From positions 111,149 to 175,148 of IMG/VR virus record IMGVR_UViG_3300038856_000064: a stretch of DNA of 64,000 nt; one strand, given 5' to 3'. How positions within the stretch are numbered: position 1 is the first letter of the stretch; the number at the start of each line of letters is the position of its first letter. Origin of the DNA: a virus. The notes beneath the pieces were generated by a model. That model searched no databases and was not told the origin of the DNA. It worked only from the letters and a program-made list of their open reading frames with translations. The translations under genes and the position numbers were made by a program. Below, one piece after another: positions 3,001 to 54,833 of the stretch.

Positions 3001-3551
3001 CGCGCAGTTGGAGGAACTCGTCCACCACCACCGGCACCAATGTCTGCAACATTAACAGTACGTGAGCCGGCTGGAAATGGAAGATTGCCCTTTGCCTTAC
3101 CAACAGAACCGCTTTGACCTAAGCTCCCCATCGTTTTTACAAGAGAACGCAAACCACTATTGACCTGCTTCGTCAACTCGTGCATCCTCTGTAGTGAACC
3201 CGCAGACTTGCTAGCCGCTTGACGCTGCGCCTTAAACGGGTCTGTCTTTGTACCACCAGCTACATTTGTCTGAATATCTAGTTTGGTTTTCTGAACAGCA
3301 TTTTGCACAGCTCTACGGATCTTAGACTCTACACCCCTGAGGCTATTCTGATTTACCTCTAGCTTAAGCTTATTGAGCTTAATGTTATTAAGCTTGGTCT
3401 TAACTTTCTTCGCAGCTTCGCCAGCATCAGACACTAATTTCTTTAATGCCGATGTATCTACTTTAAATTTTAAAGTCCCAGCATCAAGATTTCCCTTAAC
3501 CTCGACACCAGTAATCTTTAATTTTGATTCAATATCAAACTGGTCAGCCAA
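1..3551 (-). CDS. Tail tape measure protein (runs off the window start)
   Basis: Not in the ORF track. TTG start at 3551 with GGAG RBS (MADQFDIESK...). Ala/Gln-rich helical sequence with TP901-type core motifs AVISVLQERTQRGGDVVGTALKTLASRISS and AGIRQVEIFRAALQDF. Lies downstream of the tail tube and chaperone genes. Confidence 0.88.
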   Translation of the reverse strand, partial: MADQFDIESKLKITGVEVKGNLDAGTLKFKVDTSALKKLVSDAGEAAKKVKTKLNNIKLNKLKLEVNQNSLRGVESKIRRAVQNAVQKTKLDIQTNVAGGTKTDPFKAQRQAASKSAGSLQRMHELTKQVNSGLRSLVKTMGSLGQSGSVGKAKGNLPFPAGSRTVNVADIGAGGGGRVPPTARSGAGFGGFDAGGGGVDRLSRGIKEVTSSTEKANLKMKDLEDLTFEVGRKAAAFRGVAIAINTVVNAVQAAVKFVIDFNDSLIELNKILQTSDKTLQMVGNDLFGLSSKTGVAVDQTINIAQEFARAGLAGRGYGTVVELTDRALTGLQGTTLDAAQSSQLFVQIIQQVEANVRGLSKELVTTTKLFDVLGKAEDITASKATDVQQAFKRSAASIFATGATIEQATAVISVLQERTQRGGDVVGTALKTLASRISSSTSDATKALNAIGVQTIDTQGNLRNLFDVLQDTAVAFQTLTESEQADVAVKAAGIRQVEIFRAALQDFGRTQDVTNQLIEATGDATRKQRAEQSKLANVIARLQIAFQQLVRTTSEGVLGEMFIGALKGVEAVATSIAQLDRALGGAASTFTGFLAVGLAAKVLIPMFIGIKRAISFFIHSQDKAAVGMGKIDAQGKMVAQTVEGRMNTAMQRTAMLTAEANNQMKGLSASALFAAKQAERMAKARAAAYLGSAAGQEGVANRARGNMTSQGIDIIATGRAIQEPTKAVGRFGSVTNGASKALQFASRHITFVGLAASVAGGALQSLSNGLNKGGSTGLGAAADIGGGALGGAGTGALLGSFIPGVGTAIGAGVGALAGAIPGLVRTFSDAGNQTDELRRRYIELGIVQTENGEITSAVAQKLDESLRNLKSFKNFELKLEEGRLQDLFDPGGAQARKEKIQGSRQSAQQGLRASFDRSASAAEQNARIFQALSKTLEARTGEQLDLSASDLLLKSSPILNEIGETTLRELERETLSLAESFGTSTDQVRQIFDEEISRVRNKPLTADAIKKAEQTLSRDVEGFIEGLDVLIPAGGQIARAAEEQAGKFKEAVSAIALGQGGEEAQKIVRETLADVLTGKTILQGGSGENIVSSAGRGELQSLVDQASSFATKRQNVGTQGIGQATPEILKRIGELIRKDVGAEASAKAQDRIIKSQERVADAFSSIRLELPLDKFDRFLDEPV

Positions 3552-3571
3552 CTGCTACTCCAATAAATTAA

Positions 3572-4285
3572 TTAATTAGCAAGCTTCTTACGGGTTGTTT
3601 TCTTTCTAGTTGTCTTTTTTTTCGCTGTTCTCTTCTTAGTAACTCTGGGTTTAGTTTTAGCCTTAGGCTTCTCTGCATCTGCTAAGATCTGCTTCTCTAC
3701 GCCACGAACATATCCAACTTCCGGAAGGCTGGTAAGCGATTCCTGAAAAGTTGCACTTGATAATTCAAAGAGCTTTTCCCTAGCAGCTAGCACAACAGGC
3801 TCTTCTGCACGATCAATAAAGTCATGATAGTCCTTGAACACCTTTTTATTAGTGTCAGCATAAACTGTAGCATATGCTATATATGCATCACGACGAATAC
3901 TGTCAGCTAGCATCTCGCAAGAATTAGATAATACAGCCGCCTTTGCCTCGATCAACTTAAGACAATCGCTACGTAGAACACCCATCTCTTGTGCGATAGC
4001 CAACCCCTCTTCGTGGGTATTCGACTTCTCTAGTTTGATTTGTAGATCTACAATTTGGCGCTGAACTACACCTAGAGTTTCTTCATCTTCCTTGGTCCAA
4101 ATGCCCAATTCCGACATCTCACGCTCTAACGTGGCCTTCGGAAGAATTCCTCGTTTCATTAATTGAATATAAGCAATATGATATTCTGTGTCGCATTTCC
4201 GCTCTATCTCTACATTTTCAACCAATAATTTAAACTTAGCTGTCTTGCCATCAACTATTGACTCAAATTCCATTCCATCACTCAT
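3572..4285 (-). CDS. Putative tail assembly chaperone with Lys/Arg/Thr-rich C-terminal tail
   Basis: Immediately upstream of the tape measure gene; similar to the N-terminal half of 4823..6128. Confidence 0.5.
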   Translation of the reverse strand: MSDGMEFESIVDGKTAKFKLLVENVEIERKCDTEYHIAYIQLMKRGILPKATLEREMSELGIWTKEDEETLGVVQRQIVDLQIKLEKSNTHEEGLAIAQEMGVLRSDCLKLIEAKAAVLSNSCEMLADSIRRDAYIAYATVYADTNKKVFKDYHDFIDRAEEPVVLAAREKLFELSSATFQESLTSLPEVGYVRGVEKQILADAEKPKAKTKPRVTKKRTAKKKTTRKKTTRKKLAN

Positions 4286-11297: not shown

Positions 11298-12236
11298 CTA
11301 GCAAATTCCGTAGCCACCTGTGTTATTGCCATAGCCGCCATAACGAGGTATAGTAACATCGCGTCCGGATGCCCCGGCAAGCCTCCAGCGAAGATCGGAG
11401 ATTGCTTTACTCAATTCCTCACGGATAGCCGTAAGATTGAATTTGGTCATATCTGCACGATGACTAAGGCGACCAACAGCCTTAGAGATGCTAACACCAT
11501 CTGCGTTGGTTGAAGACACTCCGTCGCTAGCAATGCCAACAAGCCCGCTACCAAACGAACCGGCGGTAACTTGATTTAATCTAGCGAGAGCAGTTGACTC
11601 TCCGGTTAATAGAATCTCTTCCATTTGTAGCACTAATATATCTGCATATGGATCAGTGCTTGGGTCGATAGTTCCATTTTCTAAATTAAGAGTTAAAACG
11701 GGGGTAGAGGCTCTTGAGTTAAATGCGATAAGCCAAATATAATAGCTTTGTTCAGATAGTCTCACTAATGCTAGACGACGATTTACTCGACTGATAGCTT
11801 TTTTGAGTGTACGGCGCATAAGACCATCTACAAAAATAAGACCATCGGGATCCCCAACATCGATGCGAACCCTGTCAAATAAACTCTCAACATTATTGTC
11901 TGCTGGACTCTGAAATGATGTGGCTAATGTTGCGTCAGCTACACAGAATAATTCGGTCGACTGCCCACTCGTTGACGTGGTGGTTATATCCCAAACGATA
12001 CTCCAATTCTCGCCTAGTTGATATCCAGCGGGGATGATCGCTCCAGATGCAGTATATACACCAACATCAATCTTGGTCCCAACAGTTTCTGTTACTGCCT
12101 CTATTCCGGCGGGATCAAAAATCCTAAATCTAATATCAGTCGGATCTAATGATGCGCCATTTTGGCCAGCCGTTACATAGATATCTAGCTCTGTCGCGGC
12201 GGTACCAACTGTTAGAATTTTTCCGTCTTGTGACAT
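11298..12236 (-). CDS. Putative head-tail adaptor with N-terminal Ig-like domain
   Basis: FDRVRIDVGD..GLIFVD motif typical of adaptors; GGAGG RBS; late promoter upstream. Confidence 0.55.
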   Translation of the reverse strand: MSQDGKILTVGTAATELDIYVTAGQNGASLDPTDIRFRIFDPAGIEAVTETVGTKIDVGVYTASGAIIPAGYQLGENWSIVWDITTTSTSGQSTELFCVADATLATSFQSPADNNVESLFDRVRIDVGDPDGLIFVDGLMRRTLKKAISRVNRRLALVRLSEQSYYIWLIAFNSRASTPVLTLNLENGTIDPSTDPYADILVLQMEEILLTGESTALARLNQVTAGSFGSGLVGIASDGVSSTNADGVSISKAVGRLSHRADMTKFNLTAIREELSKAISDLRWRLAGASGRDVTIPRYGGYGNNTGGYGIC

Positions 12237-13928: not shown

Positions 13929-14960
13929 CTAGAAGGCCCCCAAGAGCACCCGGCGGTTGTCAAGACATGCGAAACCATGACGCATCCAGCCAAAGATACC
14001 CATGCGCTGGTATCTGGTGAGTGCATCGTCATCGTATACCTCAAGCTCTTCCTTGATTGGCATGACAAAGGAATCGTCTGCTTCACTAAGGTCAAGACCA
14101 ACACAGAACTGTTCGGTGTTGTTTGGCTTAGTTAGACTGAGAACAGTCTCTAGGAAGGCATCGTATTCTTGGTCCTGACCAAACTCGGTCATTGCGTGCA
14201 TGATGACACCGTAGATTTCTGCAAGACCCTTTTCAGAGCTTGTAAAGATCTCGCGACGAGTAAACTCATCGACACGGCTTGCGTCCCATGCTCGGACGTG
14301 CTCCATTGCTTCTAGAGAAACGTAGAGGTCGGTTAGACGCCCTGCGTTTCCGTTACCACCAGCACCACGAGTCATCGCTGTGTGCATACGGCTTACTAGT
14401 TCCTTGGTGAATTCACCAGGATTTGGCGACGTGGTTAGGGTATTGACAGATCCTGTAAATACCGCAGTGCCACTTGCTCCTACGACCAGACCACGGTCCG
14501 CTGCTGCGGCGAGGATAGTGCGCCAGCCATCAGAGTTGATCTTGCGAACAAAACCAGCCTCAAATACCTGTAGTGCGCGCTTGACTACGTCCCAACGTGC
14601 TTCCTTCATAAATTTGATATCCCAATCAATTGAGTTACCAATCTTGAAGGTAGGAACGTTGATCTCACTTGCTTCTACTCGACGTTCTGGCAGACGACCC
14701 TGCTCAGCTAGAGTATAAGCTGTGTAAGTGTCCTCATCACCCGGACGAACAAAGTCTAGCGGATAACTAGCCGTTGCTCCGTAAGGAATGACCTGTGGAG
14801 TATAGATATCACCCAAGTTGTCAGCATCAAAGATGCCTCGACGTAGGGGTGCAACTAATTCCTGTGCGAACGACTTTCGTGCAGCCTCTGACATGCCCTG
14901 ATCGCGGGAGGCCATCGCACGTAGAAGCGTTAGCATCTGCTCATCTTGCTTCTCATACAT
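13929..14960 (-). CDS. Major capsid protein (HK97 fold)
   Basis: 343 aa after protease/scaffold and decoration genes; E-loop-like AEQGRLPERRV and C-terminal GIFGWMRHGFACLDNRRV; GGAGG RBS; terminator follows. Confidence 0.85.
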   Translation of the reverse strand: MYEKQDEQMLTLLRAMASRDQGMSEAARKSFAQELVAPLRRGIFDADNLGDIYTPQVIPYGATASYPLDFVRPGDEDTYTAYTLAEQGRLPERRVEASEINVPTFKIGNSIDWDIKFMKEARWDVVKRALQVFEAGFVRKINSDGWRTILAAAADRGLVVGASGTAVFTGSVNTLTTSPNPGEFTKELVSRMHTAMTRGAGGNGNAGRLTDLYVSLEAMEHVRAWDASRVDEFTRREIFTSSEKGLAEIYGVIMHAMTEFGQDQEYDAFLETVLSLTKPNNTEQFCVGLDLSEADDSFVMPIKEELEVYDDDALTRYQRMGIFGWMRHGFACLDNRRVLLGAF

Positions 14961-33160: not shown

Positions 33161-33257
33161 GTGTACAGCGCGACAACTCGCGCTTGCCTCCGACATATCG
33201 CGAAAGTATTTGACTGCTAAATTTGACTTCTGGGGAAGTTTGTGATACACTTAGATA

Positions 33258-33628
33258 TGGAAAAGCTCACAGCGCAAAACGTCGCGGACATCGCCTATCG
33301 CTACTATGCGAATGGTGGAAAATCTGGACACACTCCGGGAGACCGTTCGCCTGATGGGTGCACGTATTTCCGCTCCGATGGCGGTCGGTGTGCGATCGGT
33401 GCGGTACTGGATCACTTGGGGTATACTAAAAAGGATCTGGGCGATCACAATGAGCTGACTACGGTCTCGATGCTTTTCGACGAACTACCCGGTATCCGCG
33501 AAAAATTCAGTTGCGATGTCGAATTTCTGGAAAGTCTCCAGCGAGCGCACGACGGATCAGAACGCGACGATGAAATTCCGGAACGAATCCGCTGGACTTG
33601 TCGCGATCACGGAGTATACTTGAGATAA
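33258..33628 (+). CDS. Conserved phage hypothetical protein (CxY...RCAIG...LQxAHD)
   Basis: Motifs as named; leaderless start. Confidence 0.65.
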
Positions 33629-33676
33629 CTTCAAAGCACCTAGAGGCGGAACTAGGCTAAATCCGCATTTCTTTTA

Positions 33677-33789
33677 GGGGTAGATAGGTTTTTGACATCT
33701 AGAATACGGTTTGGATACCAGCCGCGAAAAGCCCAACGCAAAAACGCGGTTTGTCTAGATGGACCCGAGTTCAATTCTCGGCTACTCCA
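33677..33789 (+). ncRNA. Mini tmRNA-like RNA 1 (tRNA-like domain only, 113 nt)
   Basis: Acceptor GGGGTAG/CTACTCC-A with G3:U wobble; D-loop ATAGGTTTTTGAC; helix CATCTAGA/TCTAGATG; GAC linker; T-arm CCGAG-TTCAATT-CTCGG. Confidence 0.8.
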
Positions 33790-33796
33790 TAAATTC

Positions 33797-33899
33797 GTTA
33801 GAGCGCGACATATTGGAATAGTAAGGTTCGCACAAACTTACTAGGACAATGGTGCGGGGCGGTGTGCGCCGCAAGTAGGTTCGATTCCTACCTCTAACA
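33797..33899 (+). ncRNA. tRNA-like RNA without a canonical anticodon arm (103 nt)
   Basis: 7-bp acceptor GTTAGAG/CTCTAAC-A; T-arm GTAGG-TTCGATT-CCTAC; long internal hairpin. Confidence 0.7.
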
Positions 33900-34014
33900 T
33901 AAATTCGGGAAGTGTTGAAATAACGACTAGTGGTACCAACCGCTATGGTGTAAAGTCTTATAAGGGCTGAGCACACCCGAAACTTCTTACACGTTAGCTG
34001 TCAACACAATTTGA

Positions 34015-34067
34015 GAGCCCTGACCCGAGTAGCTTAGAAATAGGCTTCTGGAGTTAGGGCTTTTTTT
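34015..34067 (+). terminator. Terminator closing the first ncRNA array
   Basis: AGCCCTGAC/GTTAGGGCT + T-tract. Confidence 0.8.
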
Positions 34068-34214
34068 ATCTGATACACCCGAGCCTCTCGGGCATGCTTC
34101 CGACATATCGAGAAAAGGTTTGACTTTCTGACACCTAGATAAGAAGTGAGAGTATACTTTCAACATGACCGAACACAGGAACTCATCGACGAACTGTGGT
34201 GAGTGGAATTCAGC

Positions 34215-34242
34215 TTGACAACTAGAACAACTAGGGTATACT
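34215..34242 (+). promoter_or_regulatory. sigma70-type promoter for the second ncRNA unit
   Basis: TTGACA-N16-TATACT. Confidence 0.75.
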
Positions 34243-34386
34243 TCTCCATGCGAAAGATCAAAGCGCCTACTGGCCGTAGGAAAAGGGCGCGATAACATAA
34301 ATACCTCCTATGCGGCATACCGGGTTTCCGGTACCCCGACGAAAAGAGTAGCCAGATATATCGGGGTTTGATAACTCTGGCAATAA

Positions 34387-34454
34387 GGGAGTGACAGGTT
34401 TAGGCAACTAGTGAATACTATGTTGTAACGTGGGTTCGATTCCCACCACTTCCA
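34387..34454 (+). ncRNA. Mini tmRNA-like RNA 2 (tRNA-like domain only, 68 nt)
   Basis: Acceptor GGGAGTG/CACTTCC-A with G3:U; D-loop ACAGGTTTAG; closed 9-bp helix with GAAT loop; AAC linker; T-arm GTGGG-TTCGATT-CCCAC. Confidence 0.78.
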
Positions 34455-34769
34455 TAAAGCCCTAGGTGGACGCAAGTCGCATACTAGGTTGATACTGCCG
34501 GTTTGGGTTATACCGGAGGAAGGTTCAACCTAGGGTGGTAACCTTGACCGGACCAAGCTAGATGGTCAAAATAACCACTTTTTACCTCAGGTGATACACC
34601 CGATCCTCTCTGCCATGCCGCGCGCATATCGCAACTATATCAGACACCTCCTCCCCTCCTCAAGTATATCGCAACCCTGGAGAAAAGTCAAGTATTATTT
34701 TGAGAACATCTAGGTGCTTTTCCACCCTGCTTTTCTTGCCATCTTCGACAAGTCATGTATACTTAGGGC

Positions 34770-35048
34770 ATGAGCAAGAACAACACGAACATCGGGAAGT
34801 TTCTCACCGATCTGGCAAGCAAGGCATCTCCGCTGAACGCGCAAGCTATCGCGGACTTGCAAGACAAGATGCGCGCAGAGAAGGTAGTGGAATTGGAGCG
34901 CAGGATCCGTCACGTTCTGAAATGCATCAACACCGAAGTCACCGAACTGCGTACCCTCCGCAAGCGTGAGGCGGAGACCAAAAAGCGCATCAAGGATTTG
35001 GAGAAGCTCGCGAACGACATCGTCACCGGAAAGGACATCGACGACTAG
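34770..35048 (+). CDS. Coiled-coil early protein (leaderless)
   Basis: TTGCCA-N16-TATACT promoter; hammerhead directly after the stop. Confidence 0.7.
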   Translation: MSKNNTNIGKFLTDLASKASPLNAQAIADLQDKMRAEKVVELERRIRHVLKCINTEVTELRTLRKREAETKKRIKDLEKLANDIVTGKDIDD

Positions 35049-35050
35049 CC

Positions 35051-35113
35051 TGTTATACTGACGAGATCCGGGCAAAAGGATCGAAACTAGGCATAGCCTA
35101 GTCTATAATGCCT
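35051..35113 (+). ncRNA. Type I hammerhead ribozyme
   Basis: Core CTGACGA (35058-64), stem II GATCC/GGATC, GAAA, stem III CTAGGC/GCCTAG, GTC cleavage site (after 35103), stem I TTATA/TATAA, loop-II pseudoknot GGGCA/TGCCT. Confidence 0.92.
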
Positions 35114-53426: not shown

Positions 53427-53453
53427 GGGCTAGGTGTGTGGTATACTACAAAC

Positions 53454-54833
53454 ATGAACACGATCCCAGACAAGGCCCGCAGAGTCATGGATTTGCTCCA
53501 GAACCGTTACAATTGCGGTGAGGGTGCGAATTCAGTTAAGGCTTTGGTTGTAGGTGGTTTCGTTCGTGACTCACTACTAGGTGTCCAAAGTAAGGATATC
53601 GATATTGAGGTCTACAATATGGACCTAGATACGATTGCCTGGGCTCTACGTAACGAGGGCTTTAAGGTCGATGCTGTCGGTAAGGCTTTCGGCGTGCTCA
53701 AGATTGATAACGAACTGGACATTTCGGTCCCGCGACGCGAAAACAAGGTTGGCGTTGGTCATCGTGGCTTCAATGTCGAACCCGATCCGAATATGAGCGT
53801 CGAGGAGGCGGCTAGTCGCCGAGATTTTACGATCAATTCAATGGCTATGGATCTAGACGGTAATATTATCGACCCACATCATGGGCAAACGGATCTAGAT
53901 GTACGTTGTCTCCGAGCAACGTCTCCTAATACGTTTATTGAAGATCCTCTGCGCGTAATGAGAGGAATGCAATTTGCGTCTCGTTTCAGTATGTGGATTC
54001 ATCCAGATACGGAACATCTTTGTCGTCAAATGGCTCCACAGAAGTCTGAGCTTCCTAAGGAAAGAATCTGGGAAGAGTGGAAGAAGTGGGCTCTTAAGGG
54101 CGTAAAGCCTTCCGACGGACTCATGATTATGTTTTACTCTCATTGGCTCGATCCCGAAATTAAGGTACTGTATAAAACTCCACAAGATCCAGAATACCAT
54201 CCTGAGGGGAATGTATTTATCCATACGTGTCATGTTGTAGATGCTGCTGCTGAAATTGCAGAAAGAGAGCAACTAGAAGATAATGATAGGTTGGTGCTTA
54301 TGTTCGCGGCGCTTTGCCACGACTTCGGCAAGCCGTCCACGACGACGTTTGAGCGTGGCAGGTGGCGCGCTAAGGGGCACTCTCAGGCTGGCGTAGAGCC
54401 GGCACGGGCATTCCTAGAGCGCATTGGTGCGCCTTCTGGGGTCATTCTAGAGGTTCTTCCACTAATCCAGGAGCATCTCGTACATGCAGGGATTGATAAC
54501 CCGTCACCTAGAGCAATCCGGAGGCTAGCTAATCGTATCGCACCATCTAATATCAACGCACTGAGTAGGCTTATCGAAGCAGATCATTCTGGCCGCCCTC
54601 CATTGCCTAAGGGGAATCCTTTTCTGGCATGGGTTAAGAGGGCTAATGAACTTAATGTTTCTAGTAGTAAGCCGCAGGCTATTCTGCTTGGTCGTCATCT
54701 TATCGAGATGGGTATGAAGCCAGGTATCGATATGGGGGTGGTTCTAAAGAGGGCATTCCAGGCGCAACTAGATGGCGACTTTGATAATATTGATAATGCA
54801 AAAGAGTGGGTTAAAAACCAAGGAGAAGCTTAA
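53454..54833 (+). CDS. cca: Class II tRNA nucleotidyltransferase (CCA-adding type) with HD domain
   Basis: VGGFVRD..DIDIEV, RRDFTIN, EDPLR, ERIWEE, QDPEYHPEGNV..H, LCHDFGK; leaderless start. Confidence 0.92.
   Translation: MNTIPDKARRVMDLLQNRYNCGEGANSVKALVVGGFVRDSLLGVQSKDIDIEVYNMDLDTIAWALRNEGFKVDAVGKAFGVLKIDNELDISVPRRENKVGVGHRGFNVEPDPNMSVEEAASRRDFTINSMAMDLDGNIIDPHHGQTDLDVRCLRATSPNTFIEDPLRVMRGMQFASRFSMWIHPDTEHLCRQMAPQKSELPKERIWEEWKKWALKGVKPSDGLMIMFYSHWLDPEIKVLYKTPQDPEYHPEGNVFIHTCHVVDAAAEIAEREQLEDNDRLVLMFAALCHDFGKPSTTTFERGRWRAKGHSQAGVEPARAFLERIGAPSGVILEVLPLIQEHLVHAGIDNPSPRAIRRLANRIAPSNINALSRLIEADHSGRPPLPKGNPFLAWVKRANELNVSSSKPQAILLGRHLIEMGMKPGIDMGVVLKRAFQAQLDGDFDNIDNAKEWVKNQGEA

Follow-up and report, generated by a model that had tools for sequence, protein, structure and literature searches.

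A putative early RNA operon of a tailed phage, made of a mini-tmRNA and anticodon-less tRNA look-alikes

Are tRNA-shaped RNAs that lack an anticodon made by phages as products in their own right, or are such folds signals within a messenger, or remains of something else? The question is raised by an array of structured RNAs that ends at position 34067 of the 64,000-nt stretch of DNA analysed here (the window), which is the final 64 kb of a 175,148-bp IMG/VR virus record (IMGVR_UViG_3300038856_000064, labelled G000, estimated to be 82% complete). The record belongs to a tailed phage, as portal, terminase and ligase genes are present. The array is made by a short transfer-messenger RNA (mini-tmRNA 1), an anticodon-less tRNA-shaped RNA (mimic 2) and a structured tail (element 4), followed by an intrinsic terminator. 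An earlier note, made from the letters of the window, had interpreted these elements as tRNA mimics released from one precursor. The structural side of this interpretation is right: anticodon-less tRNA look-alikes reside in one unit, running from promoter to terminator. Beyond structure, the reading favoured here, with modest confidence, is that the elements make up one co-transcribed early operon of non-coding RNAs, which would be cut into trans-acting tRNA look-alikes. The features of the array are listed below.

33223..33251, + strand: promoter-like site TTGACT-N17-TACACT with TG; likely main start; ATG 5 nt past the -10 hexamer
33257..33628, + strand: leaderless open reading frame (ORF) of 123 aa, listed as 33242..33628 from GTG; weak match to PHROG 572 (function unknown)
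33593..33620, + strand: promoter-like site TGGACT-N16-TATACT; 9/12 matches; weak
33677..33789, + strand: mini-tmRNA 1; tmRNA tRNA-like domain (TLD), P2-like helix, two small hairpins; discriminator A; CCA not encoded
33790..33796, + strand: spacer 1, TAAATTC; with the preceding A it makes AUAAAUUC; fits RN|WUU
33797..33899, + strand: mimic 2, anticodon-less tRNA-shaped RNA of 103 nt; minimum free energy (MFE) -37.1 kcal/mol, z = -3.3
33900..33906, + strand: spacer 2, same sequence as spacer 1
33904..34007, + strand: structured tail element (element 4); two robust hairpins; borders uncertain
34013..34067, + strand: intrinsic terminator; long hairpin, MFE -29 kcal/mol, z = -5.8, then seven U

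Mimic 2 features a perfect 7-bp acceptor stem (GUUAGAG/CUCUAAC), a discriminator A, and a T-arm (GUAGG-UUCGAUU-CCUAC) with a canonical 5-bp T-stem and a UUCRANY loop, directly adjoining the acceptor as in tRNAs. A long hairpin and a 5-bp stem (GCGGU/GCCGC) with a 4-nt loop are found in the D and anticodon positions, where a tRNA would have a 7-nt anticodon loop. Perfect acceptor, T-arm and replaced arms had all been described in the earlier note, and are borne out by sequence and fold. Pair 3:70 is U3-A70, and mimic 2 is therefore without alanine identity. The region is neither an ordinary nor an intron-containing tRNA according to ARAGORN, which reports nothing at 33797-33899 with or without introns. 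Assignment to RF00005 (tRNA) was made at 29 bits or more, or upon an ARAGORN call under default settings, and mimic 2 has neither. In a 211-nt search of Rfam, no tRNA, tRNA-Sec, Y-RNA or tmRNA match was found at E<=10; aligned to the tmRNA model, mimic 2 matches by its bare T-arm only (17 nt, 8.5 bits), and does not belong to the TLDs. An internal stretch, read by ARAGORN as a tmRNA 5' half, may be a relic of one.

The combination of acceptor and T-arm was compared with chance by scanning for T-arms directly preceding a strand that pairs 7/7 with a segment 45–230 nt upstream, in the whole genome and in 20 Markov-shuffled genomes. The 175-kb genome contains 16 matches, all on the + strand and including mimic 2; the mean in the shuffled genomes is 0.05. 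The signature of mimic 2 is not due to chance. The exact 3' pattern had 0 matches in viral contigs, and the T-arm and acceptor pattern had 0 in 185,579 prokaryote genomes, where no cellular tRNA with the combination was found.

Mini-tmRNA 1 heads the array, as had been proposed, and scores 52.2 bits with RF00023 (tmRNA), above the gathering score of 47. G3:U70, a TLD-type D-loop analogue and GGAC ahead of the T-arm can be recognised in the sequence. It is the ortholog of the lone 117-nt mini-tmRNAs of two relatives identified by a portal search, G002 (176 kb, complete, 63% identity) and G003 (82-kb fragment, 73%). The latter RNAs encode CCA, and score 72 and 68 bits with RF00023, respectively. 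In the alignment of the three orthologs the acceptor and the T-stem feature compensatory changes, and G3:U70 is invariant. A standard tag is absent from mini-tmRNA 1, and ARAGORN makes no standard tmRNA call. A frame of 6–7 codons leading to a UAG in the P2 strand is found at 33722-33757 and in the two orthologs (L016, L017), encoding AKTRFV, TKTGLV and QKTRLA. The kept frame might encode a very short tag; constraints of RNA pairing would account for it equally well. Since no SmpB was found in the phage, the partner of mini-tmRNA 1 would be the host SmpB. A clade-specific TLD pattern matched G002, G003, ordinary tRNAs and one coding sequence, and nothing else; a TLD 3'-end pattern, used for host inference, was found across many phyla and is uninformative.

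Several data suggest how the unit may be transcribed. The promoter placed by the earlier note at 33593-33620 is present as a sequence; it is weak, and the likelier start of the unit is at 33223. Sharing GAGTATACTT and a leader motif with a promoter found downstream at 34215, the 33593 site looks like a diverged or decayed copy of the latter. The gap between the ORF stop and mini-tmRNA 1 measures 48 nt and is unstructured (z = 0.15). No terminator lies between the ORF and the RNAs, and no promoter-like or terminator-like site was detected within 33628-34013. The terminator that had been noticed after the fourth element is found in its place (34013-34067), ending in seven U. Most likely, the ORF and the RNAs share one transcript of which the array forms the 3' part, an organization shared by G002 and by an unrelated phage described below, G005. 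Protein searches of viral contigs and relatives revealed no homolog of the upstream ORF. Two minus-strand ORFs drawn over the array (33782..33976 and 33987..34298) were discarded, having no family match and overlapping promoters and terminator.

The discriminator A, the spacer TAAATTC and a G are found in the same order at the end of mini-tmRNA 1 (33789-33797) and of mimic 2 (33899-33907). The repeated spacer of the earlier note is thus confirmed, the same 7 nt following both modules. The 11 junction bases C/A-TAAATTC-G are identical at both modules, the adjoining stems differ at most positions (D1 64% identical), and such identity beside diverged stems argues for a constraint on the spacer, rather than for a recent copy. 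AUAAAUUC holds AA|AUU, which corresponds to the RNase E core motif RN|WUU, with the key U at +2 (PMC5222698). RNase E cuts near the 3' ends of tRNAs, and frees in this way the 3'ETS-leuZ RNA (PMC5222698). The region 33900-34067 is organized as a 3'ETS-type trailer: it follows the last tRNA-shaped gene, has an RNase E-type site at its 5' end and extends to the terminator.

Element 4, also anticipated, is present at 33904-33981 (MFE -26.8 kcal/mol, z = -3.4), with some ambiguity in its outer helix and borders. It contains a 7-bp stem whose loop is ACCA, as well as a triloop-capped bipartite stem, and neither a family match nor a homolog was found for it. Short repeats and complementarities noticed in the island (the 9-mer GACCCGAGT; 7 nt complementary between mimic 2 and element 4) do not exceed chance expectation for 1.1 kb, and were dismissed.

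The maturation of 3' ends involves one more gene of the window.

53436..54833, + strand: CCA-adding enzyme; PolyA_pol head, RNA-binding and HD domains

Encoded CCA is absent from all the 16 canonical tRNAs and the 3 mimics of the phage, which have AU-rich trailers. The CCA-adding enzyme would be needed, because none of these RNAs encodes its own CCA.

A single processed precursor is plausible because the modules are joined by 7-nt spacers, no promoter or terminator separates them, an RNase E motif is present and the phage carries a CCA-adding enzyme; co-transcription, cleavage sites, CCA addition and the role in trans are predictions. Transcription would begin at 33223, proceed through the leaderless ORF (a minor start at 33593 is possible), and end at the 34067 terminator. 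The stack of acceptor and T-arm is the feature recognised by RNase P, and all modules retain it. The leading G of each tRNA-shaped module would be the site of RNase P cleavage; the AUAAAUUC spacer, or its edge, would be attacked by RNase E (with RNase Z or exonucleases as alternatives), and the phage CCA-adding enzyme would finish the 3' ends. Three products may result. The first would be a tag-less mini-tmRNA, able to take alanine and bind host SmpB, and thus to interfere with ribosome rescue or redirect it. The second would be the 103-nt anticodon-less RNA, most likely derived from a duplicated mini-tmRNA or tRNA, which would keep only the acceptor/T-arm half, read by processing enzymes, CCA enzyme and elbow-binding proteins. 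The third would be a 3'-trailer RNA ending in the terminator, similar to the 3'ETS-derived small RNA.

A second unit, paralogous to the array, is found downstream.

34215..34242, + strand: strong promoter TTGACA-N16-TATACT of the second unit, from the sequence
34387..34454, + strand: mini-tmRNA 2, 68 nt; G3:U70, 42 bits, then AUAAAG

Each copy of the unit includes a promoter (with GAGTATACTT in common), a leader (TCAAAGC.CCTA..GGC), a tRNA-shaped RNA, a structured tail, a terminator and a 40-nt motif. Aligned globally, the two units score 131 vs 63 +/- 8 in shuffles. In this alignment mini-tmRNA 2 faces mimic 2, not mini-tmRNA 1, with 83% identity over the 3' 29 nt. Duplication of a mini-tmRNA, followed by remodelling of one copy, would be the simplest history. 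The ATAAA reported after mini-tmRNA 2 is there, as ATAAAG; mini-tmRNA 2 is the last module of its own unit, and the AUAAAG following it is without UU. Additional elements were observed in the region. Two tiny frames are located upstream of mini-tmRNA 2, at 34248-34295 (15 codons, leaderless, very basic) and 34166-34219 (17 codons), and both begin 5–6 nt past -10 hexamers. A structured element ending with a U-run (34455-34592, MFE -48.8 kcal/mol, z = -2.6) follows mini-tmRNA 2, and is the positional counterpart of element 4. The 40-nt motif is found past the terminator of each unit (34071-34110 and 34592-34631; copies 80% identical), and also beside the mini-tmRNAs of G002 and G003. In G003, a promoter faces the motif from the opposite side.

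A similar organization was found in G005, a complete 72.8-kb phage identified by a loose pattern for short TLD RNAs, which is unrelated, its portal being 20% identical to that of the phage analysed here. G005 features, in order, a strong promoter, a 70-codon ORF, a mini-tmRNA (79 bits), a 162-nt RNA, a 76-nt cloverleaf and a weak terminator. The 162-nt RNA, located 1 nt past the mini-tmRNA, has the acceptor GUUCGAG/CUCGAAC, one compensated pair off that of mimic 2, a discriminator A, the same 17-nt T-arm as mimic 2, and a long branched domain in place of the anticodon arm. The cloverleaf, 1 nt further, has an anticodon arm with a 3-bp stem (CCC-GUGA-GGG), and scores 35 bits with the Rfam tRNA model. 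All three RNAs encode CCA, and no CCA enzyme was found in G005. Comparison of the two sequences indicates that the plan made by ORF, mini-tmRNA, anticodon-less tRNA-shaped RNAs and terminator arose, or was kept, in two unrelated phages. The short pattern also caught standard two-piece (permuted) tmRNA genes with tags ending in ALAA (L032, L033, L035). In other phages, mini-tmRNAs are separated from adjacent ordinary tRNAs by ~2–10 nt (L030, L031). In one array (L029), a mini-tmRNA (81-199) and a 73-nt G3:U70 gene (478-550), probably a tRNA-Ala, have an identical acceptor (GGGCCUG/CAGGUCC).

A number of observations weigh against the view that the array is an operon of trans-acting RNAs. Neither mimic 2 nor element 4 was found in G002 and G003, either by a single-sequence covariance model (CM) or by a structure-agnostic scan of the first 30–40 kb. 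Without homologs in the two closest relatives, the elements have no covariation support, and are to be regarded as young. The likeness of mimic 2 to the 162-nt RNA of G005 is limited to acceptor and T-arm, the cores being unalignable, and the same scaffold is found in ordinary phage tRNAs (Met L045, Arg L052, Ser L053); for these reasons the likeness is an analogy, not a proven homology. The 33593 site does not have the TTGACA and tCTAGA signature of the strong early promoters. The outer helix of element 4 depends on the context, GUGUUGA/UCAACAC replacing UUCGGG/CCCGAA in a longer fold, and because of this shift the borders may be set at 33904-33981 or at 33912-34007. The presence of RNase E in the host is an assumption. 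The CM of mimic 2 (R1, one sequence) gave no match in G001-G004 and scaffold-level matches only elsewhere, and the extra modules would therefore be a novelty of this lineage, which limits the weight of the claim.

For mimic 2 and the tail RNA, trans-acting products with a maturation route in common are preferred to cis signals, and cis signals to debris. Taken as cis signals, an unlikely but serious alternative, the modules would, in the manner of tRNA punctuation in mitochondria, mark RNase P and RNase Z cuts, set the 3' end of the ORF mRNA, and free the tail RNA. Neither RNase P nor RNase Z needs an anticodon arm for recognition. The mini-tmRNA is found directly after a small ORF, in one transcription unit, in G000, G002 (where it begins 1 base past the stop codon) and G005, and the t-elements of plant mitochondria provide a documented precedent (PMC1920247). 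However, the G003 mini-tmRNA has its own strong promoter, a terminator immediately after it and no ORF, which makes it a product there; one tRNA-like element would suffice for punctuation, and three are found in a row here; finally, G3:U70 is invariant in the orthologs, though cleavage needs no such pair. That mimic 2 and element 4 are decaying leftovers of a mini-tmRNA unit duplicated locally, transcribed but functionless, is considered rather improbable. The two units are indeed diverged duplicates, the closest relatives lack both elements, no family match was found, and the tmRNA 5' half detected by ARAGORN within mimic 2 would suit a relic. Decay predicts mismatches, and yet all 7 acceptor pairs and all 5 T-stem pairs are formed and the T-loop consensus is intact; moreover, mimic 2 has a trailer identical to that of mini-tmRNA 1, and the unrelated G005 keeps the arrangement intact.

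The suggestion that the excised mimics are decoys, sequestering the host enzymes by which tRNAs are attacked or sensed, came with the earlier note, and is considered very unlikely. The RNAs reside in the early region, among strong promoters, and the acceptor/CCA end, the target of some toxins, is kept, so that a decoy for acceptor-end-directed toxins is possible. By contrast, nucleases of the PrrC, RloC and VapC type recognise the anticodon loop, which is missing here, making a decoy role towards anticodon nucleases unlikely. Stoichiometric decoys, in addition, block enzymes poorly, and no defence or anti-defence gene was recognised adjoining the array. Phages are known to turn fragments of tRNA and tmRNA against the nucleases of the host, as in the case of AcrIIIA1 (PMC11662646). 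A permuted two-piece tmRNA, made by the 3' half of mini-tmRNA 1 and the internal 5' half in mimic 2, with a tag running into the terminator, is effectively refuted. It corresponds to an ARAGORN tmRNA* call (33700-34128, 23-codon tag) accompanied by a weak RF04321 match, which is far under the cut-off of 47 (17.9 bits, E = 0.54). ARAGORN itself returns 'Tag not identified', the proposed tag falls in the terminator hairpin, and the pairing includes an A.C mismatch and A3-U70 instead of G3:U70. Mini-tmRNA 1 is, on the other hand, a full one-piece TLD, conserved in relatives lacking the downstream partner.

A broader hypothesis, viewed as doubtful, is that the acceptor/T-arm half is a natural phage scaffold, by which host RNase P, Z or E and the CCA enzyme would excise, finish and stabilise RNAs with swappable cores. 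Just as tentatively, the array might be a multi-part RNA takeover module, with the mini-tmRNA acting on ribosome rescue. The scaffolded RNAs might bind host factors that recognise the acceptor end or the elbow, or be charged without decoding, a notion entertained with similar reserve. RNAs with a GUUNGAG acceptor, a discriminator A and unrelated cores of 87–159 nt were found in at least six other viral or metagenome contigs (L044, L046, L048, L050, L051, and also L034), and these long RNAs fit the hypothesis. Several of them have a tRNA-Leu-like D-arm. In L046, a 97-nt G3:U70 RNA with an odd core (3249-3345) is located 140 nt upstream of a 147-nt anticodon-less RNA of the GUUGGAG type (3486-3632); the two may be the third case in which an alanine-type mimic accompanies this scaffold. 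If the predicted products of the array are real, they would represent an RNA-only phage route to the tRNA and ribosome-rescue machinery of the host early in infection, and the engineered tRNA scaffold would have in them a natural equivalent.

Genes on the + strand start near 30 kb of the window, and the 30–38 kb interval is an early region with 22 sigma-70-type promoters vs 6.6 expected. Eight strong early promoters (starts 31881, 32640, 32886, 33223, 34215, 34736, 36641, 37006) feature TTGACA then tCTAGA, with an ATG just 5–6 nt past the -10 hexamer. Given this spacing, the early genes look like leaderless mRNAs. A hammerhead-like core (CUGACGAG, a stem, CGAAAC) is present at 35058-35085, directly past the stop codon of the ORF 34770..35048; in the whole-window scan it had no Rfam match at gathering score. 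About 16 canonical tRNAs are found at 1.3–19 kb of the record. Outside the window, the tRNA region also includes tRNA-shaped genes of 124–141 nt (L056; record positions 157-289, 311-440, 11530-11657, 14103-14243). One of the long genes, a tRNA(CAU), carries ~55 nt inserted in the D-loop (43.9 bits with the Rfam tRNA model), another has G3:U70 and encoded ACCA, and two of the inserts have the hairpin GCAG-AGUNAA-CUGC in common. No close relative was found among GenBank phages, where a blastn search with the RNA island gave no match.

No published description of a processed operon combining a mini-tmRNA with anticodon-less tRNA-shaped RNAs was found, and the array is best compared with systems that resemble it in part. 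YrlA and other bacterial Y RNAs carry a tRNA-like module, and occur in phages too. They resemble the RNAs described here in joining a tRNA-like elbow to a non-tRNA stem, and differ because the ends of YrlA form the Ro-binding stem and its tRNA-like part is internal, whereas here the ends form the acceptor stem. The Rfam search for Y-RNA and YrlA proposed in the earlier note gave no match in the array. The tRNA cluster of phage T4 includes species 1 and 2 (rnaC, rnaD), stable non-tRNA RNAs which are co-transcribed and co-processed with tRNA-shaped neighbours, and whose function is unknown. In contrast to the modules of the array, these sit among real tRNAs, and the likeness is by description only.

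Plant mitochondrial t-elements are tRNA-like folds located at mRNA ends (Forner et al. 2007, PMC1920247). They share with the array the presence of non-decoding folds beside mRNA ends, at predicted sites of RNase P and RNase Z cleavage, but are solitary cis signals, whereas the folds described here are in tandem and one has aminoacylation identity. As in the 3'ETS-leuZ type (PMC5222698), short AU-rich spacers fit the RNase E motif, and a structured trailer extending to the terminator could persist; unlike that type, no decoding tRNA is found among the modules, and the processing is predicted from the sequence. Mini-tmRNAs are a known kind of RNA, published, as far as found, for one phage only, the mycobacteriophage DS6A, which has a TLD-only tmRNA lacking the coding sequence (Hudson, Lau and Williams 2014, PMC4131195; PMC11915505). 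For a TLD-only molecule of the DS6A type, strong inhibition of tmRNA has been reported, perhaps through titration of SmpB (PMC4131195; PMC11915505). Mini-tmRNAs 1 and 2 are likewise tRNA-like domains of tmRNA encoded by a phage; both have alanine identity, and neither shows a standard tag frame. They differ from the DS6A molecule in that two copies are present, the first with a P2 helix and two hairpins, CCA is unencoded, and one unit fuses mini-tmRNA 1 to further anticodon-less RNAs.

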